Part shown: positions 5,729 through 51,629 of the stretch, piece by piece
How positions within the stretch are numbered: the first letter of the stretch is position 1
Layout of the letters: each line of letters begins with the position of its first letter
Assembly: GCA_949285875.1 (NCBI GenBank)
Contig: CASDZZ010000002.1
Span: 1,101-65,100 of the forward strand
Length of the DNA: 64,000 nucleotides
Source: an uncultured bacterium
Lineage (GTDB): Bacteria > Bacillota_I > Bacilli_A > RF39 > UBA660
Direction: 5' to 3'
Made by a program: the position numbers and the translations under genes
Notes under the pieces: generated by a model
What the model was told of the DNA's origin: nothing
The model's input: only the letters and a program-made list of their open reading frames with translations
The model's database searches: none

Positions 5729-5770
5729 ACTATCAAAATTATATCATAATTTTAATTTAACTAAAAGAAA

Positions 5771-5794
5771 AAAAGTTCCTAAAAGGGAACTTTT
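5771..5794. terminator. terminator hairpin downstream of the SWIM-protein gene
   Basis: aaaagttcc-taaaag-ggaactttt forms a 9-bp stem; T-run on the minus strand. Confidence 0.55.
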
Positions 5795-5945
5795 TTAAAA
5801 CTTGTTACAACAACCAGGATCAACGTTTGTTACTACGTCTTCTTCAGAACAAGTATATTGTGGCGTATATTTATGTTCTATTATATGGTTATTAATAACT
5901 TTGGTGTGAATTGGACAAATATGTCCTTGCCCTTTTTTGATAGAT

Positions 5946-7529: not shown

Positions 7530-7563
7530 ACTACCACCTCTTGATATATTATTATATCATACC

Positions 7564-9132: not shown

Positions 9133-9302
9133 TTCTTACCTCCTTCTAGAGATAAATAAGTACATGATGATGGTACCTCACAATTTTTATTTTTACAAAT
9201 TGTTTTAATATATTTTTTAAGTTCTTTATTTAAAACATTTATTAAGATATCATTTACATCTTTTTCTTTATTAAAAATAAAATTTATTTTGTACTTATCC
9301 AT
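9123..9302 (-). CDS. small hypothetical protein (59 aa) overlapping the recombinase start by 10 nt
   Basis: GAGGTG RBS 8 nt upstream of the ATG at 9302. Product MDKYKINFIFNKEKDVNDILINVLNKELKKYIKTICKNKNCEVPSSCTYLSLEGGKNC. Under 60 aa, so absent from the ORF track. Confidence 0.4.
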
Positions 9303-9346
9303 AACTCTCGCACCTCACTTAAATTTATGGATAAATAACTAATTTT

Positions 9347-9397
9347 AGTAATACTAAATCGTGTAAATATCACATTACACATTAATTTAGTATTACT
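9347..9397. promoter_or_regulatory. 51-bp imperfect palindrome (operator or att-like site) upstream of the small-ORF/recombinase operon
   Basis: 13-bp perfect inverted repeat agtaatactaaat at 9347-9359 and 9385-9397, enclosing an inner inverted repeat gtgtaa / ttacac (9361-9366 and 9375-9380). On the minus strand it overlaps a TAAAAT -10-like box about 45 nt ahead of the ATG at 9302. Confidence 0.5.
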
Positions 9398-9718
9398 TAT
9401 AGGTATTCACCTCTTTAATAATTATTTTTTAAATTTTCATAAACATCATCTCCTTTCACGATGCATGCTAACTTACTAATCAATTCTTATTAATCAATTC
9501 TTGTCAAATCATATTTTTTTGCTTTAATTATTCTAAATACCATTATTTTTTATTAATTCTACTAAAGCAGGATAAGATGATGACACCACAATATAAAAAA
9601 AGCCCTTATACAATAAGGATTTGTTATGGTGTCATTCTTATTTTATACTTACAAAATTCATCCTACTTCGCAGGTTAATATAAAGGGTAAATTCTTATTT
9701 TATAAGATATTAAAGCAT

Positions 9719-9766
9719 ATAAAAACATCCTATATTTAATAAATTAATTATTTTTGTAGGATGTTT
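9719..9766 (-). terminator. terminator after the Fic gene
   Basis: aacatccta...taggatgtt 9-bp stem followed by a T-run on the minus strand. Confidence 0.5.
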
Positions 9767-9772
9767 AATTTT

Positions 9773-10543
9773 TTAATTGTTTTCTTCAATTTTAAAATCT
9801 AGTAATTCTTCACACATTTTTTCGTATAAATCTTGTTCATGTCTAATAGTATCAATCAAGAACATTTTATCATTTTCGTATTCTTTTAAACCTCTCATAT
9901 AATAAGGTTTATCATCATCTAATACAATAAATGGCATAATGTTATTTCTTAAACATTCTTTAAACATTATAATTCTACCTACACGACCATTTCCATCTCC
10001 AAATGGATGAATTCTTTCAAATCTAAAATGAAAATCAACTATATCTTCTAAAGTAATACTAATTTTAGAATTATATTCATTTAATAATTCTTCTATTTCT
10101 TTTTCAACATCTTCTGGTGCTGTAGTATTAATAACATTAACTACACCTATTATATTAGGAACAATTTTAAATCCACCAACATTATATCTAGGATTTTCTT
10201 CATCACTAGTATTTCTTTTTAAAATCTTATTCATTTCAATTATCATATCTTCAGTTAATGAGTTATCAACGTTATCTAACATATAATCAAATAATTTAAA
10301 ATGATTTTTAGATTCGATTAAATCATCTAATTTAATTAAATCATCACTTTTAGGAACAAATGAAGATGTATCGAATATTGCTTCGGTTTGATCACTTGTT
10401 AATCTACTACCTTCAATTTTATTTGAATTATAAGCAAAATTAACTTGTGAATAATGATATATATTACCTTTAAATTTAGACTCTTTTTGTTTAATTAATT
10501 CATTTTTAATTTTATTTATATCCATATATTCATTTCTCCTCAT
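9773..10543 (-). CDS. Fic/Doc family protein (Fido), class-II-like with an N-terminal inhibitory motif
   Basis: Core Fic motif HPFGDGNGRVGR. N-terminal SNKIEG matches the inhibitory motif (S/T)xxxE(G/N). Confidence 0.85.
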   Translation of the reverse strand: MRRNEYMDINKIKNELIKQKESKFKGNIYHYSQVNFAYNSNKIEGSRLTSDQTEAIFDTSSFVPKSDDLIKLDDLIESKNHFKLFDYMLDNVDNSLTEDMIIEMNKILKRNTSDEENPRYNVGGFKIVPNIIGVVNVINTTAPEDVEKEIEELLNEYNSKISITLEDIVDFHFRFERIHPFGDGNGRVGRIIMFKECLRNNIMPFIVLDDDKPYYMRGLKEYENDKMFLIDTIRHEQDLYEKMCEELLDFKIEENN

Positions 10544-11016
10544 TTTATATTATTTAAACGTTTTAATATTTTATAACTATTTTCTAATCTATCTCTTTCT
10601 GATTTAAAATCTTCCATATCATTAGTTAATATATAACCACCTGTTTCTATAAATTCTTGATTATAATTACTTGCTAAAGAAATCCATTTTTCTGCATCAG
10701 AATGAGATAAGTGCACCATTTCCAGACATTCTAGTTCATCATCATACAAGCCAAACCAATTTTCATCATAAGGTCTATCATCGATATAAATAATATCTCC
10801 AAAGATTGATAGCATTAAATCTTTAAAATTTTTATATGTTAAGCTCTGTTCATCTTTTGAAAAAATGTCTGTTTTATAACCATAATTGCTAAAAAGTTCA
10901 TTCAATTTTGGAACTATTTCATTAATATGATTTTCATTGAATTCTATCATAGAGGTAGTTCCATAATGATAAACGTTAGCTATCATTATTCTAATTATTA
11001 ATTCTATTTCACTCAT
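10540..11016 (-). CDS. hypothetical protein translationally coupled to Fic; possible antitoxin or immunity partner
   Basis: Its stop overlaps the Fic start as ATGA. 158-aa acidic protein with no clear motif. Confidence 0.5.
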   Translation of the reverse strand: MSEIELIIRIMIANVYHYGTTSMIEFNENHINEIVPKLNELFSNYGYKTDIFSKDEQSLTYKNFKDLMLSIFGDIIYIDDRPYDENWFGLYDDELECLEMVHLSHSDAEKWISLASNYNQEFIETGGYILTNDMEDFKSERDRLENSYKILKRLNNIK

Positions 11017-13989: not shown

Positions 13990-14985
13990 CTAATCTAGTT
14001 TCTTTTTTTTAGCAATATCACTAACTTTTTCTTCAAAGTGATAAGATAATTTTCCTTCTGCTACATTATTTATAAAATTATCAAGTTTTTTTTGATACCC
14101 GTCTAAACTCTTTCTTAGAACAGCATTCAAAAATAAACTTAAATCTTTAAAGCCATGCTCATTTTTTAAACTAACAATTTTATCCATATTTTTATTTTTA
14201 TAAAAAGCTACTAATATTTTACCAATTTCATTATCATTAAGAACATTAAACTGACTATTTTTATCAATGAGTTCATCTAATAAAAAATATTCTTTAGCGT
14301 TTTTTCCTCTTATCATCTTATCTTTAAAAGAATTTTTATAAAAAATAATCTCAAAAAGATCAGTTGGATAAATATATCTTTCTCCGTTTTTAATTACTGC
14401 GTCATTAATTTTTGCTATTTTATCAACAGCTTCCATGCCATAAACATTATATACATTAACAAGCAACAAATAAGCTTCTATATAATATTTAAAACTTTTT
14501 AATTCATTTTCAAACTTTTCAGTAAATAAAAACGTATAAGAAATTTCTTTATATAATTCTTTAAATTCTAATGGTATATCAGCGCATATATAACTTTCAG
14601 GAAAAAAATTACTAATCTTTTCTAAAAGTTTTTTATCTGTCATGAGTTCATCTAAAAATTTATCTTTAGCATATTTAGCTATAACTTCTTTTGGAGCAGA
14701 TTTATTTAAAAACGCACTTGGGCAAATTTTATTAAAAAGAAAGGCTAGATTTTCTTTTAAAACATTTAATTTCTTAGCAAGTTTTAAATAGTCTTCCTTT
14801 TTACTTAACAAATCATTACCATCCATCTTACTAAATTTTATAAATTCTTGTTCTAACATAAAAAAGTCAATAGCTTCTTGGCAAAATTTTATTTCTATTT
14901 TGTCTTTATCTGTAAGTTTTTCTTTACTTTTTAACAAATCCAAATTAGTTACTAAAATTAATTTTATAATATCTTCATAAGTCAT
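13990..14985 (-). CDS. hypothetical protein
   Basis: 331-aa helical ORF with no motif. Confidence 0.5.
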   Translation of the reverse strand: MTYEDIIKLILVTNLDLLKSKEKLTDKDKIEIKFCQEAIDFFMLEQEFIKFSKMDGNDLLSKKEDYLKLAKKLNVLKENLAFLFNKICPSAFLNKSAPKEVIAKYAKDKFLDELMTDKKLLEKISNFFPESYICADIPLEFKELYKEISYTFLFTEKFENELKSFKYYIEAYLLLVNVYNVYGMEAVDKIAKINDAVIKNGERYIYPTDLFEIIFYKNSFKDKMIRGKNAKEYFLLDELIDKNSQFNVLNDNEIGKILVAFYKNKNMDKIVSLKNEHGFKDLSLFLNAVLRKSLDGYQKKLDNFINNVAEGKLSYHFEEKVSDIAKKKKLD

Positions 14986-18918: not shown

Positions 18919-18942
18919 AAGAATAATCTTGTGATTATTCTT
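18919..18942 (-). terminator. pnp terminator overlapping its stop codon
   Basis: aagaataat-cttgtg-attattctt 9-bp stem; T-run on the minus strand. Confidence 0.55.
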
Positions 18943-21115
18943 CCGTTTGTTTTTCCTCTTCTTTTAAGTCCTTAATTTTATCTTTAACTAAAACTTCTTT
19001 TCTAGATAAAGTTAATTTTCCGTTTTTATAACCAGTAGCCTTAACCATAATACTATCTCCTTCAGATACAACATCAGAAGTCTTTGCAACCCTTTTATCA
19101 GAAAGCTGAGATATATGTACTAGTCCTTCACAGCCATCCCAAAGCTCAACAAAGCAACCTAACTCATCAATTACTTTAACTACTTTTCCGTTATAAATTT
19201 TTCCAATTTCTACTTCTTTTACTACACTTTTTATCATGTCTGCTGTCTTATCAATTATATCTTTATCAGAATGATAAATAATTACCCTTCCATCATCTTC
19301 TAAGTCAACTTTAACAGCATTCATATCAGTTACACTATCAACGTTAGAAGCCTCTAAAATAATCTTGGTAATCATTTCTCCGCCTTTTCCAATAACATCC
19401 TTAATTTTATTTGGATCAATCATAAATGTAAGCATTTTAGGAGCATATTTACTAACTTCTTTTCTAGGTTCCTTAATTTGTTTTGCTATTACCTTTAATA
19501 TTTCCATTCTAGCTTTCTTAGCTTGTTCTAAAGCTTCTTTTAATATTTCTTTGGTAATTCCTTTAATTTTAATATCCATTTGAAGTGCACAAATACCATC
19601 TTTAGTTCCAGCCACTTTAAAATCCATATCTCCTAGATGGTCTTCCATACCTTGAATATCAGTTAAAATAGTATAATCATCACCATCAGTAATTAGTCCC
19701 ATAGCAATACCTGCAACAGGAGCTTTAATAGGTACACCAGCTGCCATAAGAGCCATACATCCAGCACAAATAGAAGCTTGCGATGATGAACCATTACTTT
19801 CTAAAATTTCTGATACAACACGAATTGTATAAGGAAACTCTTCTTCAGAAGGAATAACTTGTAATAAAGCTCTTTCACCTAAAGCACCATGACCTATTTC
19901 ACGGCGACCAGGAGCCCCATATCTTCCTGTTTCACCAACTGAGAATTGTGGGAAATTATAATGTAGCATAAATCTTTTTTGATCCTCTGGTGAAAGTCCA
20001 TCTATTATTTGATGTTCTCCTAAAGCACCTAACGTAACCACTGATAAACTTTGTGTTTCACCTCTAGTAAATAATGCAGATCCATGTGTTCTTGGAAGTA
20101 AATCAATATCAGTAGAAAGAGGTCTTATCTCCGTCATTTTTCTTCCATCTGCTCTTTTCTTTTCTTTTACTACGATTCTTCTAAATACCTCATATTCAAC
20201 TTCAGATAGACAAAGTTTTACTTTTGTTAAAAGTTCGTTAAGTTCTTCCTTATCCATTCCTTCATTTTCATACTCAAACTTAGCTACTACATCTTCTTTA
20301 ACTTTATCAATTGCAGCATACTTTTCTAATTTATCTTTAATGCGCATAGCAGTATCTAAAGGTTCTTTAGCAAGAGAATAAATTTCATCTTTAAGTTCTG
20401 GAGTGATTTCAAGAACCTCATATTCCATTTTTTCTTGACCAACTTCTTTAATTATTTTTTCTTCAAATTTAATTAACTCTTTTATAGCCTCGTGACCAAA
20501 CATTAAAGCTTCAAGCATGTCTTCTTCACTTACTTCTTTAGCTCCAGCTTCAACCATGTTAATGGCATCAATTGTTCCGGCTACCGTTAAATCTATATCA
20601 CTTTTTTCAAGTTCTTCAACAGTAGGATTAATTACAAACTCACCATCTACTCTTCCTACCTTAACACCCGCAATTGGGCCATTAAAAGGCACTTTACTAA
20701 TTGAAGTAGCAAGTGATGAACCAAACATTGCGGTAAGTTCTGGTGAGTTATCTGGGTCAACTGATAAAACCGTATTTACAATTTGAACTTCATTTCTAAA
20801 ATCTTCAGGAAATAAAGGTCTCATTGGTCTATCAATCATTCTAGCAGCAAGGGTAGCATTCTCACTAGGTCTTCCTTCCCTTTTTATAAATCCACCAGGT
20901 ATTTTACCTACTGAATATAATTTTTCTTGGTATAAAACCATAAGAGGAAAGAAATCAGATAAAACATTAGCCGTTTTACTAGCTACTACCGTTGAAAGTA
21001 CAACCGTATCACCATATCTAACTAACACGGCACCATGAGCTTGTTTAGCCATCTCACCTATTTCTATAGTTAAGTTTCTTCCTCTAAAATTCATTTCAAA
21101 AATTCTTTTTTCCAT
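18935..21115 (-). CDS. pnp: polynucleotide phosphorylase
   Basis: Two RNase PH domains followed by KH and S1 domains; 726 aa. Confidence 0.95.
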
Positions 21116-21183
21116 ACTCTTCTCCTTAAAATTCTATATAAAAAGACACCCAAAAAAGAGTGCCTACTTTTATTTTTATAAAA

Positions 21184-21551: not shown

Positions 21552-22574
21552 CTAATTTGCAATACTTTTTACTAAATTATTTATAGAATCATCAACAAAA
21601 GTAATATTAGAGTCGAATTTTTGAAAGTTTTTGTTTTCTTCATGAACTTCTTTTTTCAGTAATTTTTCAGTAGAAAGTCTTACTTTATCATTTGAAAAAA
21701 TCCCATAGTTATTTTTCATAAAAAACAAGAAAGCTGAATAAGTTCCAAAAAAATATAATATTCTCTCTTTATTTTTTCTTACTAGATAATAATATTTATA
21801 CTGTATATCTAAGGCTTGCTCTAAATTTTTCTCCGCAATTTTGATTTCATTTTTATTAAGAACATCACTAATTAATAAAAGATATAAGTATTTACCACTA
21901 TCATTATTTAAAATTATATCTATATAAATTTGCTTTTCTTCTAAATTAGTACAATTTTTTTCAATTAATTTAAATGCTTTTTTAACATCTTTTTCTACTA
22001 CAACTTTTTTCTTATACCATTTTAAATCTTCCTCATTTACAATAGAAATAAAATCTCCCGTATCTAATTCATTATAAAATTTTAATAATAAACTATCTTT
22101 AATAAATGAGATAATATTACCTTGCGTTTTTTTATAAAATTCAACACATTTATTAATACTACCATTAGTTATTTTAGATTCTATTATTTTTTGCATCAAA
22201 GTATCCCCATAAATTTTATAAAGACTATGTAATTGATCTAAAGTTAATCTTGATAAAATATCCTTATTATACTCTCCTAACCTGGAAATTATTATAAAGA
22301 CCCTATTAATTTCTGCTCTTTCCAAATAAATTAGTAAAACTTTTAACTTATTATGTTCTAAAAACACTTCAAAATCTTTTAAAGAATACCTATCTAACTT
22401 ATTTCCGCATCTGGTATATTTAAAATAATCAAAAATTAAATTATCTAAAAAATATTTACTAAAAAGTAAACTTAAAGAATATTTACTAGCAAAATATTCA
22501 TCTAGTAACTCATATTTTTTACTCTCAGGTATGTTTTTCTTTTTTAACAAAGAAATTATTTTTTTATCTGTCAT
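21552..22574 (-). CDS. hypothetical protein sitting where ribF is normally found
   Basis: 340 aa with no RibF motifs. Lies between truB and rpsO. Confidence 0.5.
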   Translation of the reverse strand: MTDKKIISLLKKKNIPESKKYELLDEYFASKYSLSLLFSKYFLDNLIFDYFKYTRCGNKLDRYSLKDFEVFLEHNKLKVLLIYLERAEINRVFIIISRLGEYNKDILSRLTLDQLHSLYKIYGDTLMQKIIESKITNGSINKCVEFYKKTQGNIISFIKDSLLLKFYNELDTGDFISIVNEEDLKWYKKKVVVEKDVKKAFKLIEKNCTNLEEKQIYIDIILNNDSGKYLYLLLISDVLNKNEIKIAEKNLEQALDIQYKYYYLVRKNKERILYFFGTYSAFLFFMKNNYGIFSNDKVRLSTEKLLKKEVHEENKNFQKFDSNITFVDDSINNLVKSIAN

Positions 22575-22591
22575 TTTTTCCTTTCTTATAA

Positions 22592-23455
22592 CTATATAAA
22601 CATTTTATATGGTTTCATCTTAGTAGAATCTTTTTGATAAGTTTTATATATAGCTATAACTTCATCATTATAAATATATACAATCTCATCAGAATTATAT
22701 TTATTATCTACCAGCCCACCATTTTTTATTATTTTATAATCATTTTCATTTAATTCTATAATTTTCTTTTCTTTTAATACATCTTTTATTGATAATAATT
22801 CAAAATTATTGTTTTCTACATCTTCTAAAGAATAAGCATTTTCTATAGAAAAATTTCCTTGTTTAGTTCTTTTTAATTCACTCATTACACCAATAATATT
22901 AAGTTTATTATTAATATCTCTAATCAAACTTCTTATATAAGTTCCTTTTGAAACGGTTGTCTTAAATTTATACTGACTTTTTTCAAAAGTTAGAAGCTTA
23001 ATATCAAATATATCAACTATCCTGCTTGGTAAAGTAACTTCCACGCCATCTCTAGAATATTCATATAACTTTTTCCCTTTTATCTTAACAGCGCTATAAG
23101 CTGGAACTTCTTGCAAGTATCTTCCTTTAAAAGAATTTAAAGTGTTAATTAGCTTTTCCTTATCCAATACGCATGTTTCTTCTTTCAAAATTTTACCTTC
23201 TATATCTAAAGTATCAGTATAAAGTCCTAACTTAGCAGTTGCTACATATTCTTTTTCTTTAGAAGTTATTAAATCTACCAATTTTGTTGCCTTACCAATA
23301 CATAAAACAAGTACCCCTGTTGCTAAAGGATCTAAAGTACCAGTGTGCCCTACTTTCTTAGTATTTAAAATCTTACTTACTTTATTTACCACATCCCGGC
23401 TCGTAAATCCTTTAGGCTTATTAACAACTAAAATTCCATCCATTTCTTTCACCAA
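22592..23455 (-). CDS. truB: tRNA pseudouridine(55) synthase TruB
   Basis: GILVVNKPKGFTS...GHTGTLDPLATGVL motif. Confidence 0.9.
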   Translation of the reverse strand: MVKEMDGILVVNKPKGFTSRDVVNKVSKILNTKKVGHTGTLDPLATGVLVLCIGKATKLVDLITSKEKEYVATAKLGLYTDTLDIEGKILKEETCVLDKEKLINTLNSFKGRYLQEVPAYSAVKIKGKKLYEYSRDGVEVTLPSRIVDIFDIKLLTFEKSQYKFKTTVSKGTYIRSLIRDINNKLNIIGVMSELKRTKQGNFSIENAYSLEDVENNNFELLSIKDVLKEKKIIELNENDYKIIKNGGLVDNKYNSDEIVYIYNDEVIAIYKTYQKDSTKMKPYKMFI

Positions 23456-23533
23456 CCCTATTTTACCATAACTTAATTATAATATTCAAAAAATACAAAA
23501 ACCTATACAGGTATTTGTATTTTTTATTACTTC

Positions 23534-25372
23534 CTATCTTCTTATATAAGAAATACCTTTAGCAAAATCCAGTCCATCTATTTTTTCGCTATCATAATAT
23601 CTTACTGCATTTTCAATGCTTTCAGGATTATAATTAATAATATCATTATTATATTTTGCAAAGTATTTTTTCATATTTTTCACTTCGTTAAAATATGCAT
23701 TACACTCAGCTTCTGTTAAAGTACCTTTATTACTAGCTTCATCTAAAATTTTTGTAATCTTTGTTGTGATTTCTTCAAGGTTAATACCTAACGCTAAAGC
23801 TTCGAAATATTGGTTTAAAATCATTATAGTTCTTTGCTTATCATCTGTAAGTTCTTCGTCTGAAATCTTCTTTTCTAGACCCTTATACATTTGGTAACTT
23901 ATCTTACCACATAATTTACTATATTTAGAATCTTCTTTTTTAGTTAAGCTTTCTGGTCCTTTTTTATATACTTTATATTTCAATTTATTAAACTTATTTA
24001 AATTCCTATATAAATGAACACCACTTACTATATCTCTTTCTGATAGTATTTTTTGAATCTTTTCTATTTTATCATTTTTACCTTCATCGAAAGCTTTTTC
24101 CAACCTTTTTTTGAAAAACTTCTTACCAAACTTACTATTATAAACCCAAGAAACTGCTTTACCACAAAATTCAACAAATAATTCTTTAACACTCTTAACA
24201 TCTGCTTCATCTTCAACAGCGTTACGATTTTCTTCTTTCATATTATTAAGATTATTTAAAGTTATAATTTTGTTGATTTCACTTGAAAAATTATTCTTTT
24301 CTTCTTCGCTAAGACATGGCAATATACCTTTATATAAATCTAACAAATCACTTAATTTTGCATTGCTAATTTCTTCATCTGAAGACTTCATTAAATTTAA
24401 TGATTTAACAAAATTTATTTTTTTACCAACATAAATTAATCTTTTTTCTAATTCTATTTTAATACTATTATTTTTAATTTTTCTTATATATTCTTCAGCC
24501 AAATCTAAATATCTTTCGTTGCTCTCCATATCAGCTTTATCCAAAGCAATTTTTGCCAAATTTCTATTTTCTTCATCACTTATTTTTTCTTCTTCAATTT
24601 TATACTTTTTGTCTTCTAACTCTTTTTTGATAAGTTTCTTATCATTATTATCATCTAATTCATCAATTAAATCTAAAATTTTAGGTGAATCTTTTTCAAT
24701 ATTTTCTTTAGATAATTTATTTAATAAGTCTTTAGCCTCATTATATAATTTAACTTGATTATAAGTATAAGATAAATCTGCCATTAAATTATCTTTTTCT
24801 TCACCATCTTTTAATTTTACAATTAAATCAGTTATAAAATTAATAGTATTTAAATTTTTATTATTTTTTAATAAATCTAAATAGTAATTAATTTCTTCAA
24901 AGTCATTTTCATTTTTTTTACCATTTTTTTGGAAAATAGCTTTTTTAGTTTTATTTATTACTATTTTTTTACCTTTTTTTCTAGAAACCTTCTTCAAGAT
25001 TACCTTTCTAGAAGCTTCTTTTTCTAACTTAATGACCTTTTCTGAAATTAAAGACATTCCTAAACTTAAGCTTTTAATATCTTCTAAATCAGAATATTCT
25101 TCCACCCTTTTTAATAAATCTTTCACTTCTTCCAAACGGCTATTTTTTATTTCTAAATTTTTTTCTAATTTACGGATTTCATCAAGTAATTCGTGTACTT
25201 TTTCATAATTTTTTGATTCCAAGCTACCATTATACTCTTCCCATAAAATGCGAGTACGTTCATTTCTTTCCTTTACATCATCTTCTATTTTTTTTAATTC
25301 CTCTTTTAAATAATTAGAAATTTCTAAAAAGTTTTTTTTGTATGATTCTAAAATCATCTTTTCTAAATTCAT
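23534..25372 (-). CDS. hypothetical coiled-coil protein (612 aa)
   Basis: Long K/E-rich heptad-like sequence with no TM helix and no enzymatic motif. Confidence 0.5.
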   Translation of the reverse strand: MNLEKMILESYKKNFLEISNYLKEELKKIEDDVKERNERTRILWEEYNGSLESKNYEKVHELLDEIRKLEKNLEIKNSRLEEVKDLLKRVEEYSDLEDIKSLSLGMSLISEKVIKLEKEASRKVILKKVSRKKGKKIVINKTKKAIFQKNGKKNENDFEEINYYLDLLKNNKNLNTINFITDLIVKLKDGEEKDNLMADLSYTYNQVKLYNEAKDLLNKLSKENIEKDSPKILDLIDELDDNNDKKLIKKELEDKKYKIEEEKISDEENRNLAKIALDKADMESNERYLDLAEEYIRKIKNNSIKIELEKRLIYVGKKINFVKSLNLMKSSDEEISNAKLSDLLDLYKGILPCLSEEEKNNFSSEINKIITLNNLNNMKEENRNAVEDEADVKSVKELFVEFCGKAVSWVYNSKFGKKFFKKRLEKAFDEGKNDKIEKIQKILSERDIVSGVHLYRNLNKFNKLKYKVYKKGPESLTKKEDSKYSKLCGKISYQMYKGLEKKISDEELTDDKQRTIMILNQYFEALALGINLEEITTKITKILDEASNKGTLTEAECNAYFNEVKNMKKYFAKYNNDIINYNPESIENAVRYYDSEKIDGLDFAKGISYIRR

Positions 25373-25473
25373 AATAAACTCCCCCTCGAATTAATGCCTC
25401 ATATACTATCACATAAGTAAACAAAAGTCAACACCCTAAAAATAAAGAAAAACTTGAAAAATCAAGTTTTCTG

Positions 25474-26832
25474 CTAACTTATAAATTTAAAAACCACATA
25501 TCCTAAAACAGCTATAACTAGTAATATAAAAGATAATATAATTACGCTTATTTTTCCGCTTTTTTTGTTATTTTGCTCTTCTTCAGAGTCATTATAAATT
25601 TCATTTAAATACTTTTCATAGGCTTCTGTAAGATAATATCGTTCGCTTCCGTTAAAAATATATTCATAGTATGCTTTGAAGCTTACTGGTAGCTTATTCT
25701 TATTTTTTATATAAATTTTTTGCACCTCATTAAACGTTGCTTTTTTATTTATTTTAGTATTAGTAAGAAGCTGCAAAATTGCTATTGAAAAAGCATATAA
25801 ATCAGTTTTTTCAGAAACCACCTTATTTAAAGGATCTTGATATTTCAAAGGCACATCAGAGTTGATAACATTATTTTTTATAACAAAAGAATCACAATTT
25901 ATTAGCTTAACTTTACCATCCTTATCAAAGAATATATTATCCAGACTCAAGTCACACATAAATACATGTTTTTTATGAAGTTTCTTCATAACTTCTTCAA
26001 TAGCCTTTATTTTATCTATCTTCTCCTCAAAACTGTATATTTTATTATTAATACTCAAAGGTTCTCCTTCTGGCAAGTAATCCATTATGTAACCAACAAA
26101 AACCCCATCATAATATACTAAATTTTTGGGCTTAACGATTTCTTCTATATCTAAAGTTTTAATATATTTTAAAGTTTCTTCCCTATCTTTTATATATATA
26201 AATGAAGGCGAAGTAAACATTTTTAAAATTTTACCATCCTTAGTTAAATATACGCTTCCTGAAGAACTAGCCGCTAACTTTTTTACTATCTTTAAACTTC
26301 TATAATCTAAAGCATCTTTAGGAAAACTTCTAAATTTATCAAATAATTTTCTTTTAGTTATCAATCCCGCAACATTAGCATTTAATAAAATTCCTTCTTC
26401 ATTCATACCTATTTCATAAAAACCAAAAGCTTGATAAGTTCCTATGTTATTATTTTCACTTTCTTTAATAGTAACTAAGACATTTCTAGTACCAACTTCT
26501 CCAGCTATGTAAACTACTCCTTCTATTAATAAAAGTTCTGCATTTTGATTTTTATATTTATCAGATATATACATATTTTTAATTTCTACTTGAGAAATGT
26601 TATTACCACTTTTAAATTCAAAAATTGCATAACCCTCTACTTTTTTATCTATTAAAATGACTATTGTCATTTTATTTTTAAAATATTCTGGAACAATATA
26701 ATTATCTAAATCTATTAAACACTCTTTTTTTAGAGACTCATTAGAGAATGTATCAACAATATCTGCAAAAATATCAAAATCTGTTTCTAAAACTTCTAAG
26801 CTAATATTTCCTTTTTTGATTAAATTTACCAT
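25474..26832 (-). CDS. GNAT-like N-domain fused to a Hanks-type protein-kinase-like domain, with a C-terminal TM anchor
   Basis: Kinase subdomain-like motifs LKMF (Lys), HKKHVFMCDLSLDNIFF (HxDLxxxN), INCDSF (DFG-like) and TDLYAFSIAIL. Hydrophobic C-terminus ISVIILSFILLVIAVLGYVVF. Confidence 0.55.
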   Translation of the reverse strand: MVNLIKKGNISLEVLETDFDIFADIVDTFSNESLKKECLIDLDNYIVPEYFKNKMTIVILIDKKVEGYAIFEFKSGNNISQVEIKNMYISDKYKNQNAELLLIEGVVYIAGEVGTRNVLVTIKESENNNIGTYQAFGFYEIGMNEEGILLNANVAGLITKRKLFDKFRSFPKDALDYRSLKIVKKLAASSSGSVYLTKDGKILKMFTSPSFIYIKDREETLKYIKTLDIEEIVKPKNLVYYDGVFVGYIMDYLPEGEPLSINNKIYSFEEKIDKIKAIEEVMKKLHKKHVFMCDLSLDNIFFDKDGKVKLINCDSFVIKNNVINSDVPLKYQDPLNKVVSEKTDLYAFSIAILQLLTNTKINKKATFNEVQKIYIKNKNKLPVSFKAYYEYIFNGSERYYLTEAYEKYLNEIYNDSEEEQNNKKSGKISVIILSFILLVIAVLGYVVFKFIS

Positions 26833-26953
26833 TTTACCACCCTCTACTATAATTCTAGATATAATTATACAATTTTTTTTAACATTTTTCTACATAAATT
26901 ATATATTTTTTTAACAAATTAAAACTACTAATAGTTGTCTATAAGTAGTTTAA

Positions 26954-27304
26954 TTATTTTTCTTTATCTTCTTTTATTTTTGTTATTATATTTTCTATTT
27001 TACTTCCATAAGAAATAGATTCATCATATTTAAATCTTAAATCAGGTATTTTTCTTATTTCTAACTTTCTTTTTGCAAGTTCTGTTTTAATAAAACCCTT
27101 AGCTTGATTTAAATCGTGCAGGCATTTATCTTTGTTTTTTTCATCAAAAACAGTACAATAAACTTGTGCTAAAGATAAATCCGTATCAACTTTTACGGCA
27201 GTTAAAGTTACAAACCTAATATCCTTATCATACACTTCATTAGCTAAAATATCACTTATTTCTCTTAATAATAAATTGCCTATTCTTTCTGTTTTTACGC
27301 TCAT
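26954..27304 (-). CDS. rbfA: ribosome-binding factor A
   Basis: RIGNLLLREISDIL...FVTLTAVKVDTDLSLAQVY. Confidence 0.85.
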   Translation of the reverse strand: MSVKTERIGNLLLREISDILANEVYDKDIRFVTLTAVKVDTDLSLAQVYCTVFDEKNKDKCLHDLNQAKGFIKTELAKRKLEIRKIPDLRFKYDESISYGSKIENIITKIKEDKEK

Positions 27305-27318
27305 AAATTAAATACCTC

Positions 27319-28554
27319 CTAATTATATATTGGAAATTTACTAGTTATCTTTAAAACTTTTTCCTTAAGTTCCATTAATTTTTCTTCATTATCATTGTTT
27401 CTTAAAGCTTCGTCTATGATACTTGAAATTAAAACAAAATTTTCTTCTTTTAACCCTCTGGTAGTCATAGCAGGAGAACCTATTCTAATTCCACTTGCCT
27501 TCATTGGAGACTCAGTTTCGTTTGGAATAGTGTTTTTATTAACCGTTATGTTTATTTTATCTAAAACACTCTCAGCATCTTTTCCTGTTATACCATAAGA
27601 TGCTTTTACATCAACTAAAATTAAATGGTTATCAGTACCATTAGATATTATTCTAACATCTTTTTTTAAAAAATAATCACACATTGCCTTTATGTTTTTT
27701 AAAACTTGCTCTTGATATTCTTTAAACTCTGGTTTTAAAGCCTCATAAAAGCACTGGGATTTAGCTGCTATAACATGCATTAAAGGTCCGCCCTGAATTC
27801 CAGGGAAAACCGTTTTATTTATTTTCTTAATTATTTCTTCACTGTTAGTTAAAATAACGCCTCCTCTTGGACCTCTTAACGTTTTATGAGTGGTTGAAGT
27901 AACAACGTCAGCGTAAGGTACTGGTGAAGGATGAAGACCTGTTGCAACAAGACCTGCTATATGAGCCATATCAACCATAAGGTATGCTCCCACCATATCA
28001 GCTATCTCTCTAAATTTCTTAAAATCTATTATTCTTGAATAAGCTGATGCTCCGGCTATAATCATTTTCGGTTTTTCTTTTATAGCAAGTTCTTTCACTT
28101 CATCATAATCTATAAAGCCATCATCATTTACTTTATAAGAAATGATTTCATAATCACTTCCTGAAAAGCTAAGTGGGTGTCCATGAGTTAGGTGTCCACC
28201 ACTTGATAAATCCATTCCTAACACTTTATCACCATGATTAAGTAGGGCTCTATAAACTGCCATGTTAGCACTAGAACCTGAATGCGGCTGAACGTTAGAA
28301 TATTTACAATTATATAATTTTTGTAAATATTCATTAGCTATATTTTCAAAAACATCAATATACTCACAGCCACCATAGTATCTCTTTGAAGAATAACCTT
28401 CAGCATATTTATTAGTTAAAATACTACCTTGTAACTCTAAAACATCTTTTGAGACATAATTTTCTGATGCAATAAGTTCAATATTTTCTTCTTGTCTTTT
28501 CTTTTCTAAACTTAGAGCTTCTTTTAATCTAATATCCATCAAAATCGCCTCCAT
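27319..28554 (-). CDS. glyA: serine hydroxymethyltransferase
   Basis: LIASENY motif and the PLP lysine in [14 protein letters not shown]. Confidence 0.95.
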
Positions 28555-28610
28555 GTATAATATTATACACTAAAAAAAAGTATAAGAATAGTACTTATAC
28601 TTTTTATTTA

Positions 28611-30752
28611 TTATCTTTTTATTTCAACTAACTCATAAGCTTCAATAACATCATTTTCTTTAATATCTTGGTATTTTTCCAAAGTAATACCACATTCAAA
28701 ACCAGCTTTAACTTCTTTAGCTTGGTCCTTTTCTCTTTGAATAGAGTTAATCTTCCCATCGTATATTACAACACCATCTCTTATTACCCTTGCGTTAGCA
28801 TTTGATTTAATTATTCCATCTAATACGTAGCACCCAGCAATGTTACCAATTTTAGAAAATTTATATATTTTTCTTATTTCAGCAGAACCAAGTACTTTTT
28901 CCTCATACTCTGGATCCAAAACACCTTTCATTGCTGCTTCCATTTCTTCAACTACTTTATATATTATGTTATGAAGTCTTACATCAACACCATATTCTTT
29001 TGCAATATCTAAAATTTTGTTCGTAGGTCTTACGTTAAATCCTATTATAATTGCACTAGAAGCATTAGCTAAAACTATATCACTTTCAGTTATTGTTCCA
29101 ACACCACTTCTTATGATGTTCAACTTACAACCTTCTACTTCTATTTTAGATAGTGTATTTTTAACAGCTTCTTCACTACCTTTAACATCAGTTTTTAAAA
29201 CTATATTTATCTCTTTTAAACCTTCTGATATTTTTCCAAATAAATCATCCAAACTCATTGCACTAGCTAATGTATTAGCTTTTAGTTTAGCAGTTTCGCT
29301 TCTTTGTTCTGCAACACTGTGAGCTTGTTTTTCTGATTCAAAAGCCATAAACCTATCTCCAGCCGTTGGAACACCTGATATACCAGTTATCTCTACCGGA
29401 GTAGAAGGAAGTGCTTCTACAACCTCTTCACCTAAATCATTTTTTAAGGTTCTAACCTTTCCAAAGTATTCTCCAACAACTACTGGATCACCCAAACGTA
29501 AAGTACCATTTTGAATTAATAAAGTAACAACCGAACCAACGTTTTTATCAAGTTTTGATTCTATAACCGTACCCATAGCATATCTTTTTGGATTAGCTTT
29601 TAACTCTTCCATTTCTGCTATAAATAATAAGCTTTTTAATAATTCATCTATACCTTCATGAGTTTTAGCGGAAATATTAACAAATAAAGTATCTCCACCC
29701 CAAGAATCTGGTGTTAAACCATTTTCACTCATTTCACGTTTAACTCTTTCAGGATCAGCACCTGGTTTATCCATTTTATTAACAGCTACAATAATAGGAA
29801 CTTTAGCTGCTTTAGCATGATCAATAGCTTCTATTGTTTGAGGTTTAACTCCATCATCCGCTGCAACAATTATTATAACAACGTCGGTAATGCTAGCTCC
29901 TCTAGCTCTCATCTCAGTAAAAGCAGCATGTCCTGGAGTATCAATAAACGTTATTTTTTTACCTTCATATTTAACTTGATATGCTCCTATATGTTGTGTT
30001 ATACCACCATGCTCTGTTTCTACAACACTACTTTTTCTTATTGCATCTAAAAGAGAAGTTTTACCATGGTCCACATGCCCCATTATAGTAACAACAGGAG
30101 GTCTTTCTTCTAAATCTTTTTCGTCATCTTTTACCTCAAACATTTCAAAATTAGAAATATCTGCAGTTTCTTCCTTTTTTAAAGTTTTATTATATTCTAA
30201 GGCAATTACAGAAGCATCATCAAAACTTATGCTAGCATTCATATTAGCCATTATTCCTAGTTCCATAAGTTTTTTTAATATTTCTCCTACTGATTTTTCT
30301 AATGCTGTAGCTAACTCTTTAATTGACATTCCTTCTTTATACAAAACTACGTTTTTATCAGCCTCGTTATTAGAAACTAGTTTTTCTTTATGCTTATACA
30401 TAGCTTTTTTAGCATCTTTAATATCTTTTTGTTTACTCTTGTTCTTTTTCTTCTTAGAAACATCATTATTTTTATTATATATAGTATCCTTTTTATCTAT
30501 CAAAGAATCTACTACTTCATCATAATAATCATCTTCGTCCATTTTTTTGATAATTTCTTCATCAGCTGCTTCGGACATTTCCGCACTTTCTTCATTTGCT
30601 TCATTTTCTAAAGCATTATCTAATTCAACAATCATATCATCATTTAACATATCTTCTTCTGTAGTCACATTAAATCCTAACAATTCACATTTCTTTAAAA
30701 TCTCCTCTACAGTTTTATTAACGTCCAAAGCATACTCTAAAACACTCATCAT
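28611..30752 (-). CDS. infB: translation initiation factor IF-2
   Basis: GHVDHGKTSLLD and DTPGH motifs; 713 aa. Confidence 0.95.
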   Translation of the reverse strand: MMSVLEYALDVNKTVEEILKKCELLGFNVTTEEDMLNDDMIVELDNALENEANEESAEMSEAADEEIIKKMDEDDYYDEVVDSLIDKKDTIYNKNNDVSKKKKNKSKQKDIKDAKKAMYKHKEKLVSNNEADKNVVLYKEGMSIKELATALEKSVGEILKKLMELGIMANMNASISFDDASVIALEYNKTLKKEETADISNFEMFEVKDDEKDLEERPPVVTIMGHVDHGKTSLLDAIRKSSVVETEHGGITQHIGAYQVKYEGKKITFIDTPGHAAFTEMRARGASITDVVIIIVAADDGVKPQTIEAIDHAKAAKVPIIVAVNKMDKPGADPERVKREMSENGLTPDSWGGDTLFVNISAKTHEGIDELLKSLLFIAEMEELKANPKRYAMGTVIESKLDKNVGSVVTLLIQNGTLRLGDPVVVGEYFGKVRTLKNDLGEEVVEALPSTPVEITGISGVPTAGDRFMAFESEKQAHSVAEQRSETAKLKANTLASAMSLDDLFGKISEGLKEINIVLKTDVKGSEEAVKNTLSKIEVEGCKLNIIRSGVGTITESDIVLANASSAIIIGFNVRPTNKILDIAKEYGVDVRLHNIIYKVVEEMEAAMKGVLDPEYEEKVLGSAEIRKIYKFSKIGNIAGCYVLDGIIKSNANARVIRDGVVIYDGKINSIQREKDQAKEVKAGFECGITLEKYQDIKENDVIEAYELVEIKR

Positions 30753-30769: not shown

Positions 30770-31039
30770 TTAACTATTTTTTATAATTTCCTCTAAATCC
30801 AAATAAATTTTTTCAGGAATCAAAACTTCTAAATATCTTTCCAAAGCTTTTGTTTTCCTTGCAGTTTCAACAACATCTAAGCTTTTTTTTACGTAAGCTC
30901 CTCTACCATTTTGTTTTCCTGTTAAATCTATAAAAACGTTTCCTAGGTTGTCCCTTACTACTCTAATTAATTCCTTTTTTGGCAATTTTTCTTTCGTTAC
31001 AACACAAGTTCTCATTGGAATTTTTTTTGGTTTTAACAT
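30770..31039 (-). CDS. ylxR: YlxR/RnpM family RNA-binding protein (DUF448)
   Basis: PMRTCVVTKEKLPKKELIRVV...GRGAYV. True start is probably the M at 31039; the ORF-track start at 31078 overlaps nusA. Confidence 0.75.
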   Translation of the reverse strand: MLKPKKIPMRTCVVTKEKLPKKELIRVVRDNLGNVFIDLTGKQNGRGAYVKKSLDVVETARKTKALERYLEVLIPEKIYLDLEEIIKNS

Positions 31040-31052: not shown

Positions 31053-32138
31053 TTAACTAATTGCATTAGTAAGATCAATATTTTCTTCTTTTACTTGTTC
31101 TTCTGTTTTAACATCGATTTTATAATGAGTCAAACGCGCTGCTAACCTAACATTTTGACCTTTTTTACCAATAGCTAAAGATAAATTATCTCCGTTAGCT
31201 ATCGCTAAAGCTTCATTTTTCTTTTGATCCAATATATATACTTTAACTTCTTTAGCAGGCGATAAAGCATTTTTTATAAAAGTTATAGGATCTTTATCAT
31301 ATTTAACAACATCTATTTTTTCTCCACCAAGTTCATTTGTTATACGATTTATTCTAGAACCTTTTTCTCCAATGCAAGCCCCGATAGCATCAACATTAGA
31401 ATTTTCAGAGTAAACAGCAATTTTACTTCTAGAACCTGCATCCCTAGCTACGCTATAAAGAATTACGGTACCATCGTTAAGTTCTGGAATTTCATTTTCA
31501 AGTAGTCTTTTTACAAATCCGTAATGAGCCCTAGAAAGTAAAATCAAAGGACTTTTACCAGAATCATCTATCTTTGAAACATATACTTTAACTGAACTAC
31601 CCATCTTTAAATTTTCGCCTTTAATAAGTTCACTTTTTGGCAAAATTCCGTGCATTCTACCTAAATCCACATAATAATTTTGAGCATCTTCTCTTGATAA
31701 AGTACCTATTAACAATTCCCCTTCTTTATCAGCAAATTCAGCCATAATACTTTGTCTTTCTGCTTCCCTTACTTTTTGGGTTAAAATCTGCTTAGCTGCC
31801 ATTGTAGCAACCCTACCAAAATTTTTTAAAACAACTTCATTTTCTATAGTTTCTCCTACTTTAATATTTGGTACTATTTTTTTAGCATCTTCTAGCAAGA
31901 TTTGAACATCTTCATAATTTTCTTCTTCTTCATCATACTCTTCAACTACTCTTTGATAAGCATAACCCTTAATTTCCCCTGTTTTTTTATTCAAATCAAT
32001 TCTTATATTAGTAAGACCAGTATCTTTAGCATAAGCCTTTTCTAAAGCTGTTGTCATTCCCTCAAAAATAATTTCTTCACTAATTTCTTTTTCTTCACAA
32101 ATTGCCTTTAAAGCCTTTATAAATTCTTTTCCATTCAT
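31053..32138 (-). CDS. nusA: transcription termination/antitermination factor NusA
   Basis: N-terminal domain followed by S1 and two KH domains. Confidence 0.95.
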   Translation of the reverse strand: MNGKEFIKALKAICEEKEISEEIIFEGMTTALEKAYAKDTGLTNIRIDLNKKTGEIKGYAYQRVVEEYDEEEENYEDVQILLEDAKKIVPNIKVGETIENEVVLKNFGRVATMAAKQILTQKVREAERQSIMAEFADKEGELLIGTLSREDAQNYYVDLGRMHGILPKSELIKGENLKMGSSVKVYVSKIDDSGKSPLILLSRAHYGFVKRLLENEIPELNDGTVILYSVARDAGSRSKIAVYSENSNVDAIGACIGEKGSRINRITNELGGEKIDVVKYDKDPITFIKNALSPAKEVKVYILDQKKNEALAIANGDNLSLAIGKKGQNVRLAARLTHYKIDVKTEEQVKEENIDLTNAIS

Positions 32139-32139
32139 T

Positions 32140-32400
32140 TTATCTATCTCCTTTTTCTACCGAACATACATCTAATACATAAGGTTCTTCAAATTCATCC
32201 TCTATTTTATCAATTAAGGGATTTATAATATCAGTAGCTTCTACGCAAGTATCCACATCGACAAATGGTTCCTTATCAATTTCTATTCTTAAAAAATACA
32301 TACTACCTTCTTTAACATATTCAACATTACATAGTTTAATGTTTTTTTCTTTTAAAGGTTCTTTAATTAAAGCTTTTACCTTTTCTTCCAAAATTACCAC
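32140..32400 (-). CDS. rimP: ribosome maturation factor RimP, short form with the N-terminal domain only (86 aa)
   Basis: Position immediately upstream of nusA and N-domain similarity. The ORF terminates 1 nt before the nusA ATG. Confidence 0.6.
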   Translation of the reverse strand: MVILEEKVKALIKEPLKEKNIKLCNVEYVKEGSMYFLRIEIDKEPFVDVDTCVEATDIINPLIDKIEDEFEEPYVLDVCSVEKGDR

Positions 32401-32582
32401 TCCTTAATTATAAAGAGCAGGACATCTTGTCCTACTCTTTGTTGCTAAACACATTATATCATATTTAGTTTATATTTCAACACTTTTTACATATTTAAAC
32501 AAAATGTTTTTATGTTTTTTTACTAAATTCTTAATTTTATGATTAATTTTTGATATAATCTAAAATATACGGAGGTTAAAAA

Positions 32583-37888: not shown

Positions 37889-37965
37889 TGGTGACGCGTA
37901 TGGGATTTGAACCCATGAATGCCGCCGTGAAAGGGCGGTGTGTTAAACCACTTCACCAACGCGCC
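37889..37965 (-). tRNA. tRNA-Glu (anticodon TTC)
   Basis: Cloverleaf read from the reverse complement; anticodon loop CTTTCAC; encoded CCA. Confidence 0.85.
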
Positions 37966-37985
37966 AGTTTTCATAAACAAATAAA

Positions 37986-38063
<78 letters not shown>

Positions 38064-38096
38064 TTTGAGAGCTCATCTAAAACTGACTATTAAAAA

Positions 38097-38173
38097 TGGT
38101 GGAGCTTAGGGGATTCGAACCCCTGACCTTCTCGGTGCAAGCGAGACGCTCTAGCCAGCTGAGCTAAAGCCCC
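38097..38173 (-). tRNA. tRNA-Ala (anticodon TGC)
   Basis: Reverse complement GGGGCTTTAGCTCAGCTGG...CTTGCAC...CCA. Confidence 0.9.
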
Positions 38174-47688: not shown

Positions 47689-47689
47689 A

Positions 47690-49434: not shown

Positions 49435-49444
49435 TTTTTTCCTC

Positions 49445-51547: not shown

Positions 51548-51623
51548 TGGCGCTTCAAGTAGGACTCGAACCTACGACCTGCCGGTTAACAGCCGGATGC
51601 TCTACCAACTGAGCTATTGAAGC
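51548..51623 (-). tRNA. tRNA-Asn (anticodon GTT), copy 1
   Basis: Reverse complement GCTTCAATAGCTCAGTTGGTAGAGC...CTGTTAA...CCA. Confidence 0.85.
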
Positions 51624-51629
51624 AAATAA

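Follow-up and report, generated by a model that had tools for sequence, protein, structure and literature searches.

Lineage-specific genes at probable transcription-unit boundaries of a translation gene cluster in RF39 Bacilli, including a putative membrane-anchored GNAT-kinase fusion

The reference for gene order in the nusA-pnp translation cluster is Bacillus subtilis. In Bacillus/Clostridium-type genomes the genes run nusA-infB-rbfA and truB-ribF(ribC)-rpsO-pnp, with a terminator between rpsO and pnp. We analyzed a 64,000-nt stretch of DNA (the window; 25% GC) from an uncultured bacterium of the order RF39 (GenBank contig CASDZZ010000002.1, positions 1,101 to 65,100), in which 12 genes on the minus strand, between 18.9 and 32.4 kb, read rimP-nusA-ylxR-infB-glyA-rbfA-(452 aa)-(612 aa)-truB-(340 aa)-rpsO-pnp, the numbers in brackets being lengths in amino acids (aa) of unnamed proteins (Table 1). 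The order and orientation of rimP, nusA, ylxR, infB, rbfA, truB, rpsO, and pnp are the same as in the Bacillus/Clostridium-type clusters, and there is likewise a terminator-like hairpin between rpsO and pnp, but ylxQ and ylxP are missing, the neighborhood has no ribF anywhere in the clade, and four lineage-specific genes have been added at probable unit boundaries. An earlier note on this DNA, written from the letters and a list of open reading frames (ORFs), had described a departure from the Bacillus order with glyA between infB and rbfA, and a kinase-like and a coiled-coil gene, co-oriented and about 100 bp apart. The ORFs, their minus-strand coordinates, and their Pfam and NCBIfam identities bear this out (serine hydroxymethyltransferase, SHMT, at 8e-162 for glyA), and the gap between the two co-oriented genes measures 101 bp. 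The identities of rimP, nusA, ylxR, infB, and pnp come from precomputed Pfam annotation of the same contig (ENA ERZ17292904). The most likely start of truB is at 23443 (283 aa; ATG with a ribosome-binding site), and those of glyA and rpsO are most likely at 28539 (406 aa) and 21450 (88 aa).

Taken as a whole, we think it likely that this locus arose by insertions at the boundaries between separate transcription units, and that the inserts include a tail-anchored kinase with a regulatory pseudo-GNAT domain and, in the 612-aa protein, a scaffold or structural protein; the functions given here for the inserts other than glyA are putative. The backbone, rimP-nusA-ylxR-infB-rbfA followed by truB, rpsO, and pnp, would have been kept while ribF went from the neighborhood, and lineage-specific genes of nested ages would have gathered at the unit boundaries. 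The oldest insert would be the 452-aa kinase gene after rbfA. A gene for a charged helical protein of about 600 aa would have come second, before truB in most of the clade, then one for a helical protein of about 335 aa after truB in a patchy subset of species, and finally glyA, which precedes rbfA here and in one other species.

Homologues of the 452-aa kinase occur in 38 GTDB species, which are RF39, CAG-433, or Candidatus Aphodocola-like gut metagenome-assembled genomes; the records that carry them include Clostridium sp. CAG:594, Candidatus Aphodocola excrementigallinarum, and uncultured Bacilli, Mollicutes, and Tenericutes. Candidatus Aphodocola corresponds to GTDB genus CAG-594 in family CAG-433, order RF39 (PMC8035907), and RF39 are uncultured Bacilli predicted to make peptidoglycan and form spores (PMC10868615), which fits the CotZ, FtsW, SpoVA, and sigma-F (sigF) genes near the locus. 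We compared gene order across the 38 species plus metagenome loci, labeling all ORFs in 46 loci by BLASTP against the window proteins. The 612-aa and 340-aa families were gathered from the neighbors of the kinase gene in related loci by iterated searches with hidden Markov models (HMMs); word-indexed homology searches with these two proteins returned only the query itself, since low complexity or divergence leaves them without shared 5-mers.

The order rimP-nusA-ylxR-infB-rbfA-kinase is found wherever the contig extends that far (46 loci), so that the remodeling is not special to this genome but is the normal state in a clade of at least 38 species. A member of the 612-aa family lies directly upstream of truB in 27 of the 28 species loci that show both genes, and in the 28th (L041) the same promoter and leader precede an ORF of 906 aa. 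All 12 members of the 340-aa family lie between truB and rpsO; of 24 species loci, 11 have the gene and 12 lack it, with nothing else in the slot. At the infB/rbfA junction, glyA is found only in the window and in locus L023 (76% identity). The full gene order of the window is therefore unique among the sampled species, while every element except glyA is widespread in the clade. The earlier note had held that close relatives with exactly this order and annotated functions for the inserts would undo its reading; in the relatives the inserts carry no annotated function, and where they have a name it is 'hypothetical protein', which is also the label of the 452-aa protein in public records.

The proteins of the cluster differ greatly in their identity to those of the window: 72-94% for nusA, infB, rbfA, and pnp, 57-69% for truB, 50-68% for the kinase, 24-37% for the 612-aa protein, and 24-41% for the 340-aa protein. 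An exhaustive search of 1.84 billion representative proteins found the full-length kinase architecture in only about three clusters at 50% identity, including P0123 (54% identity to the window protein) and P0125 (41%), and the remaining hits (E >= 4e-11) covered the kinase core only. The contig of P0125 (L047) and a locus from activated sludge (L106), both with a kinase 41% identical to that of the window, read rimP-nusA-ylxR-infB-rbfA-kinase-truB-rpsO-pnp and have neither the 612-aa nor the 340-aa gene. Because the kinase gene occupies the same slot at this distance without the other two, we regard it as the oldest and most stable insert; the 612-aa gene either was added later or was lost in the L047 and L106 lineages.

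The same junctions take different genes in different lineages. A sister lineage, whose RbfA is 62% identical to that of the window, has no kinase gene and carries tyrS directly after rbfA. Between the kinase and 612-aa genes the contents vary among species (dapA, several unknown ORFs, TnpB in L013, a three-gene cassette), which makes this junction an insertion hot spot. For glyA (window 27319-28610, minus strand; L023:8247-9541), a rough neighbor-joining tree does not place the window and L023 as sisters, and either there were two insertions or other lineages have lost the gene from this junction. SHMT supplies the one-carbon pool that is used to formylate initiator Met-tRNA, a possible link of glyA to infB.

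We also noted several other arrangements at these junctions. In the sister lineage (L081-L103, for example L082:3499-8843) there is a 183-aa ORF between ylxR and infB and a 249-aa ORF between infB and rbfA. The three-gene cassette (~93, 614-750, and ~81 aa) lies between the kinase and 612-aa genes in six species (L019:11486-13907, L021:6305-8668, L028:11479-14113, L038:11653-14147, and also L025 and L027); of its products, the middle one is weakly paralogous to the 612-aa family (HMM E 3e-18 to 7e-7) and the last one is weakly DUF1292-like (E 0.002). In L006 (8212-16753), the kinase gene is followed by a split DNA methylase, two helix-turn-helix proteins, a reverse transcriptase (RVT_1), 643-aa and 130-aa unknown ORFs, and a DUF2201 protein, which may be a defense or mobile island in the hot spot downstream of the kinase.

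The junctions between the probable units carry sequence signals of their own (Table 1). Our promoter calls rest on cross-species conservation, as a generic promoter scan is uninformative at 25% GC. The site upstream of rimP is the probable start of a rimP-nusA-ylxR-infB unit. The stop of glyA is 14 nt from the start of rbfA, and rbfA is now probably driven by the glyA promoter, since glyA appears to have brought its own terminator and TGTATAAT promoter to the infB/rbfA junction; L023 has the same layout of terminator and TGTATAAT between infB and glyA. In the rbfA/kinase gap, the arrangement TTTTTTGTAGAAAT-N17-TGTATAAT followed by the ribosome-binding site of the kinase gene is conserved in the intergenic regions of about 35 loci, and this promoter is sigma-A-like in appearance. 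Ahead of the 612-aa gene, 27 related loci share the consensus TTGACA-17-TGnTAnnAT and a near-invariant leader, GCATTCAAACAAAAGGGGGAG. Before truB, relatives conserve a hairpin ending in CTTTCTTTTTTT followed by TGTTAAAAT, and in L047 this CTTTCTTTTTTT-TGTTAAAAT block stands directly after the kinase gene. The four gap hairpins in the window have folding energies (dG) of -9.5 to -14.6 kcal/mol and z-scores of -2.5 to -4.7 against shuffled sequence. In the truB/340-aa gap there are no terminator or promoter signals like those at the other junctions; the 340-aa gene starts 17 nt past the truB stop, with its own ribosome-binding site, and is probably co-transcribed with truB. Based on a terminator hairpin and a promoter-like signal at each of four junctions, conserved across species, the cluster would most likely be transcribed as six or so units: rimP-nusA-ylxR-infB, glyA-rbfA, kinase, 612 aa, truB-340 aa-rpsO, and pnp. 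This speaks against the proposal of the earlier note that the kinase and 612-aa genes are embedded in an operon read from the infB promoter. If correct, the 'universal' translation cluster would be a chain of short transcription units whose boundaries take up new genes, and caution is needed in taking gene adjacency as co-transcription.

Two further observations concern the start of the 612-aa gene. The leader GCATTCAAACAAAAGGGGGAG, for example at L014:13038-13058 and L022:11446-11466, is conserved far above the protein that it precedes; considered as a regulon signature, it occurs in one copy per locus, with no other copy in the window. We also considered a 5' hairpin (CATTCAAA/TTTGAATG) that would mask the start codon and that most relatives can form (-5 to -9 kcal/mol). 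We rejected it, as its z-score is 0.03 in the window and its 3' arm is missing in several species.

Table 1. Genes, protein domains, and predicted transcription signals of the cluster, in window coordinates and in the direction of transcription.
Feature	Position	Strand	Basis or sequence
Promoter-like site upstream of rimP	32453-32480	-	TTGAAA-16-TG-TATAAT; 11/12 consensus matches, TG present
rimP	32140-32391	-	Precomputed Pfam RimP_N
nusA	31053-32138	-	Precomputed Pfam NusA_N/KH
ylxR	30770-31039	-	Precomputed Pfam YlxR
infB	28611-30752	-	Precomputed Pfam IF2_N/GTP_EFTU/IF-2
Terminator-like hairpin with U-run after infB	28572-28600	-	dG -10.7 kcal/mol, z -3.3
Extended -10 before glyA	28562-28569	-	TGTATAAT
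glyA, serine hydroxymethyltransferase	27319-28539	-	SHMT 8e-162; NF000586 3e-186
rbfA, 30S ribosome-binding factor A	26954-27304	-	RBFA 2e-30; TIGR00082 2e-29
Hairpin with T-run after rbfA	26916-26951	-	dG -10.0, z -2.5
Putative kinase promoter	26864-26892	-	TAGAAA-17-TATAAT with TG
452-aa GNAT-fold, Hanks-type Ser/Thr kinase, C-terminal transmembrane anchor	25474-26832	-	
GNAT-like domain, aa ~50-153	26374-26685	-	
Kinase domain, aa ~180-360	25753-26295	-	
Transmembrane helix, aa 428-451	25480-25551	-	
Putative terminator hairpin with U-run after kinase gene	25437-25471	-	dG -9.5, z -3.9
Putative promoter of 612-aa gene	25403-25431	-	TTGACT-17-TGaTAGTAT
Leader with strong Shine-Dalgarno before 612-aa gene	25373-25397	-	GGCATTAATTCGAGGGGGAG
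612-aa charged all-alpha protein ('CC' family), probably monocistronic	23534-25372	-	
Putative terminator hairpin with U-run after 612-aa gene	23488-23525	-	dG -14.6, z -4.7
Promoter-like site of truB	23460-23489	-	TTGAAT-18-TGgTAAAAT
truB, tRNA pseudouridine-55 synthase, 283 aa	22592-23443	-	TruB_N 2e-53; TIGR00431 4e-71
340-aa protein, clade-specific fast-evolving family	21552-22574	-	
rpsO, 88 aa	21184-21450	-	Ribosomal_S15 5e-36
Terminator-like hairpin between rpsO and pnp	21144-21165	-	Terminator scan
pnp, polynucleotide phosphorylase	18935-21115	-	RNase_PH x2, PNPase, S1

The described protein that the 452-aa protein most resembles in architecture is YabT of Bacillus subtilis, a cytoplasmic Hanks-type kinase with a single C-terminal transmembrane (TM) helix and no extracellular sensor domain (PMC3708118, PMC6333020). 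Both occur in Bacillota that form spores, by prediction in the case of RF39. The likeness is one of architecture, and there are differences: the 452-aa protein has an additional N-terminal GNAT-fold domain, is non-RD (ICD in place of HRD), and has an acidic juxtamembrane stretch, whereas a basic DNA-binding motif has been described for YabT. By analogy, we infer that the 452-aa kinase works most like YabT.

We examined the 452-aa protein with an alignment of 26 close homologues and an AlphaFold (AF2) model. The earlier reading of this protein as a fusion of a GNAT-like domain, a Hanks-type kinase, and a C-terminal TM helix agrees with the alignment, the model, the Foldseek and profile matches, and the hydrophobicity. 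The GNAT fold is present: in a profile search the N-terminal domain hits 8osp at 1.9e-7 and PaiA (1TIQ) at 4.4e-7, Foldseek matches 8osp at 1.5e-7, and the AF2 strands and helices at residues 54-153 are consistent with it. In Pfam, the match to Acetyltransf_1 is under the cut-off (E 0.08; 13.7 against 20.7 bits), and some homologues carry a precomputed PF00583 match. The core shared with PaiA and other small GNATs (1TIQ, 8osp) is beta4-alpha3-beta5-alpha4 (E 2e-7 to 4e-7), and the PaiA-type Y-x-x-x-G-F motif is kept. In contrast to PaiA, the domain is fused to a kinase, and it does not have the acetyl-CoA pyrophosphate loop Q/R-x-x-G-x-G/A: QKHGLG of PaiA aligns to KNKNME in most members and to KNQNAE in the window, where N97 and E99, at the two glycine positions, are invariant in the 26 homologues. 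Because this motif is lost, the domain is more likely a ligand-binding or substrate-docking regulatory domain than an acetyltransferase.

The kinase domain has the bilobal protein-kinase fold, with more than 1,800 PDB matches of the AF2 model at E <= 1e-3 in Foldseek, the top ones (BRAF, IRAK4, JAK2) at about 1e-9 over ~250 residues; profile searches match JAK2, ROCK1, and the bacterial protein kinase chain 4eqm at about 2e-6. Residues K204, E218/E219, D294, N299, D314, and D344 are invariant in the 26 homologues, and HMM alignment to JAK2 confirms their positions. The canonical GxGxxG, HRD, and APE motifs are replaced by SGRSGN (SSSGSV in the window), ICD or MCD, and R/Q-D-P, departures that read as variants and not as loss of catalytic residues, and there is no conserved Ser or Thr in the activation loop. 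A conserved helical region (367-413) leads to an acidic linker and then to a single C-terminal hydrophobic segment (~428-451 of 452), which is found in all 26 members (Kyte-Doolittle ~3.0; peak of 3.1 at residue 430 in the window protein) and is modeled as a helix at 428-451. Acidic residues (DSEEEQNN) lie next to this helix, preceded at some distance by a K-rich stretch. We conclude that the 452-aa protein is probably an active, tail-anchored, non-RD Hanks-type kinase. It would be held at the cytoplasmic face of the membrane by its C-terminal anchor, with no extracellular sensor domain. As it is non-RD and has no conserved phospho-acceptor in the activation loop, it would be competent without loop phosphorylation, and it would phosphorylate Ser or Thr of cytoplasmic proteins. 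A full-text literature search found no report of a bacterial GNAT-Hanks fusion. The combination of a PaiA-like pseudo-GNAT domain, a non-RD Hanks kinase, and a tail anchor is a previously undescribed domain combination within a known class of kinases and not a new kind of system, so the locus gives testable candidates and does not overturn current understanding. RF39 is an abundant, uncultured gut order with reduced genomes, and for this reason a conserved lineage-specific regulator would be a lead to its biology.

Several points weigh against the overall explanation. The promoters and terminators are predicted from sequence; the generic promoter scan shows no enrichment in the AT-rich window (71 sites against 80 expected), and some read-through is likely, since the hairpins are AT-rich and the terminator scan called none of the four in the gaps (0/4). 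The order of insertion was drawn from presence and absence and a rough neighbor-joining tree, not from a rooted species tree, and it would be just as simple to suppose that L047 and L106 have lost the 612-aa gene. The match of the window protein to Pkinase (PF00069, 5.8e-7) is slightly under the Pfam gathering cut-off (29.6 against 31.7 bits), although nearly all homologues carry a precomputed PF00069 match, and its glycine-rich loop is degenerate. The AF2 model of the kinase protein is of moderate quality (predicted local distance difference test, pLDDT, 69; predicted template modeling score, pTM, 0.55), with low confidence in the linker and the N-terminal 50 residues. Finally, the acetyl-CoA loop of GNAT proteins binds through backbone amides, so a domain without the GxG motif could still bind acetyl-CoA.

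The 612-aa protein is rich in charged residues (K+R 20%, D+E 19%; ~39% in total), has no significant Pfam, NCBIfam, PDB-profile, or Foldseek match, and belongs to a family of 496-874 aa, no member of which has a TM segment. A single-sequence AlphaFold model is 100% helical with an overall pLDDT of 56; a helical hairpin at 3-119 and modules at 190-310 reach 75-88, the rest is below 50, and the better-conserved C-terminal third is modeled at low confidence. The earlier description of a coiled-coil protein was thus right about a charged, helical protein, which is better called all-alpha, with a hairpin followed by helical-bundle modules. The consensus promoter, strong Shine-Dalgarno sequence, and own terminator suggest that the gene is expressed at a high level and independently, and the product is most likely an abundant cytoplasmic structural or scaffold protein. 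Matches of the model to ESCRT-III/PspA-like hairpins (E ~1-3) were discarded as generic helical hairpins, and kinship with the 340-aa family was rejected (hhalign probability 0.05%).

Hanks kinases are known to regulate coiled-coil scaffolds, such as StkP or PknB with DivIVA/Wag31/GpsB and AfsK with DivIVA. The arrangement in the window, a membrane kinase beside a long, charged, helical cytoplasmic protein, resembles these pairs by analogy only: the 612-aa family has no detectable similarity to DivIVA, GpsB, or EzrA, or to any Pfam or PDB family, evolves very fast, and is missing from the most distant loci that bear the kinase. It is possible, though we would not bet on it, that the two form a functional module in which the membrane-tethered kinase phosphorylates, or is scaffolded by, the helical protein. 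In the window and 24 of 32 loci the two genes are direct neighbors with the same orientation, nearly every species of the close clade has both of them between rbfA and truB, and in L029 and L033 the kinase gene, 612-aa gene, and truB stay together despite a different upstream context. However, each gene comes with a terminator and promoter-like signals of its own, the two are separated by unrelated genes in the other 8 of the 32 loci (dapA, unknown ORFs, the three-gene cassette), L047 and L106 have the kinase gene alone, L044 has it directly before rpsO, and the rates of evolution of the two proteins are very different. The whole region is also syntenic within a narrow clade, so that adjacency weighs little. 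The functional pair proposed in the earlier note is therefore doubtful, and the 612-aa protein is a possible substrate of the kinase by position.

The position of the kinase gene also raises the idea that it acts on the translation or ribosome-maturation machinery encoded by its neighbors (IF2, RbfA, TruB, S15, or the immature 30S subunit), with the GNAT-like domain sensing acetyl-CoA or polyamine, and so couples membrane or metabolic state to translation. Sporulation kinases are known to silence translation, lineages from gut and activated sludge alike retain the kinase gene between rbfA and truB, even where identity has fallen to 41%, and the closest relative of the GNAT-like domain is the polyamine acetyltransferase PaiA. 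Sporulation genes (CotZ, SpoVA, sigF) lie nearby in this order of predicted spore formers (PMC10868615), and YabT, sensor-less and C-terminally anchored, is expressed during sporulation (PMC3708118, PMC6333020). We nevertheless consider this unlikely: the kinase gene is probably a separate transcription unit, conservation of the slot may just mirror the stability of the cluster, and the sister lineage has tyrS and no kinase in this position. The fullest version, in which RF39 has a dedicated membrane-tethered regulator of ribosome maturation and translation whose PaiA-like domain senses polyamine or acyl-CoA, whose kinase phosphorylates a product of the cluster (IF2, RbfA, TruB, S15, or the immature 30S), and for which the 612-aa protein is the scaffold or main substrate, is less probable again; if true, Ser/Thr phosphorylation would be tied to 30S biogenesis in a way not described before.

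The enzyme AAC(6')-Ie/APH(2'')-Ia combines an N-terminal GNAT acetyltransferase with a C-terminal kinase-fold phosphotransferase in ~479 aa, and the 452-aa protein, with the same domain order and a similar length, might likewise be a bifunctional enzyme that modifies small molecules and not a protein kinase; weak NCBIfam similarities to Kdo kinase and LanKC/LanL point the same way. We judge this very unlikely. The best sequence and fold matches are to protein kinases, there is no APH-family Pfam match at E <= 0.1, and C-lobe elements of protein kinases are present (the activation segment ending in R/Q-D-P at the APE position, and the alpha-F Asp, D344), while the acetyl-CoA loop motif is lost and the tail anchor and conserved housekeeping context are atypical for resistance genes.

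It is highly improbable that the kinase gene, possibly with its neighbors, is anti-phage defense or mobile-element cargo that landed in the cluster. Its best PADLOC and NCBIfam similarities are to defense kinases (mad6/MADS6 at 4e-9, then MkoA and PD-T4-6), and the slot downstream of it takes up such genes as the methylase/reverse transcriptase island of L006 and the TnpB of L013, but the similarity is limited to the kinase core (mad6 at 33.8 bits in PADLOC and 27 bits against a cut-off of 460 in NCBIfam). The PHROG matches are only to weak, generic acetyltransferase or kinase families (~3e-4 to 5e-4), the gene is single-copy, vertically conserved, and evolving at the rate of truB across 38 species, and it is adjoined by housekeeping genes with no conserved partner defense genes. 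We therefore rejected both a defense-system and a phage origin.

The 340-aa gene sits in the slot of ribF in Bacillus-type clusters and is of similar length, but the chance that it encodes a highly divergent RibF or a functional replacement is practically negligible, as 11 family members have no FAD_syn or Flavokinase match in Pfam, a PDB search with the family profile yields no hit at E <= 1, the hhalign probability of a relationship to E. coli RibF is 0.03%, the family alignment has no RibF nucleotidyltransferase or flavokinase motifs, and the gene is missing from about half of the species that also have no ribF at this position. This last point counts against the suggestion in the earlier note of a ribF replacement, as a patchy presence argues against a compensating role, and the lack of any similarity to RibF speaks against the divergent RibF that the same note had allowed for. 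The window ORF has no Pfam, NCBIfam, PHROG, or PADLOC match, and family members align at 17-25% identity.

As the earlier note had stated, there is no RibF-like ORF in the window: no FAD_syn or Flavokinase match was found by Pfam scans or in precomputed annotations for ORFs of at least 120 aa, all but four of which (179, 149, 137, and 126 aa) were checked, and neither the window nor 115 related loci (together 1.45 Mb) gave a tblastn hit to E. coli RibF at E <= 10. Two ORFs without a Pfam match, of 331 and 325 aa (13990-14985 and 57844-58821, minus strand), are not RibF-like by tblastn. Since the window has genes for flavoproteins (Flavin_Reduct, HI0933-like, DAO), the organism needs FMN and FAD, and ribF must be located elsewhere or replaced by another route. 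With ribF missing from the neighborhood throughout the clade, one may ask where these organisms make FMN and FAD, or whether they do.

Elsewhere in the window, a second small atypical kinase of 245 aa is encoded at 51839-52576 (plus strand), between a Rieske/DAO oxidoreductase gene and the tRNA-Asn/aspS region. It matches Pkinase at 1.2e-7 and RIO1 at 2.7e-6, is WaaY/Kdo-like, and in PADLOC is PD-T4-6/MkoA-like; origin of the 452-aa kinase by duplication from this gene was rejected (BLASTP E 0.024, 22% identity). The region 5237-11016 (minus strand), beside ffh and ftsY, probably represents an integrated mobile element, with a large serine recombinase (7564-9132), a Fic/DOC protein (9773-10543), whose exact sequence has no record in the assembly index, and three ORFs of 163, 527, and 158 aa without a family match. 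A run of tRNA-Glu, tRNA-Ile(GAT), and tRNA-Ala(TGC) is found at 37889-38173 (minus strand); the Ile/Ala pair is usually located in the spacer of rRNA operons, and Rfam shows no rRNA gene in the window. Upstream of aspS-gatCAB (46264-51187), there is a T-box leader at 51234-51460 (minus strand; 142.8 bits), with two tRNA-Asn genes just upstream of it (51548-51705), an arrangement that fits synthesis of Asn-tRNA by transamidation.

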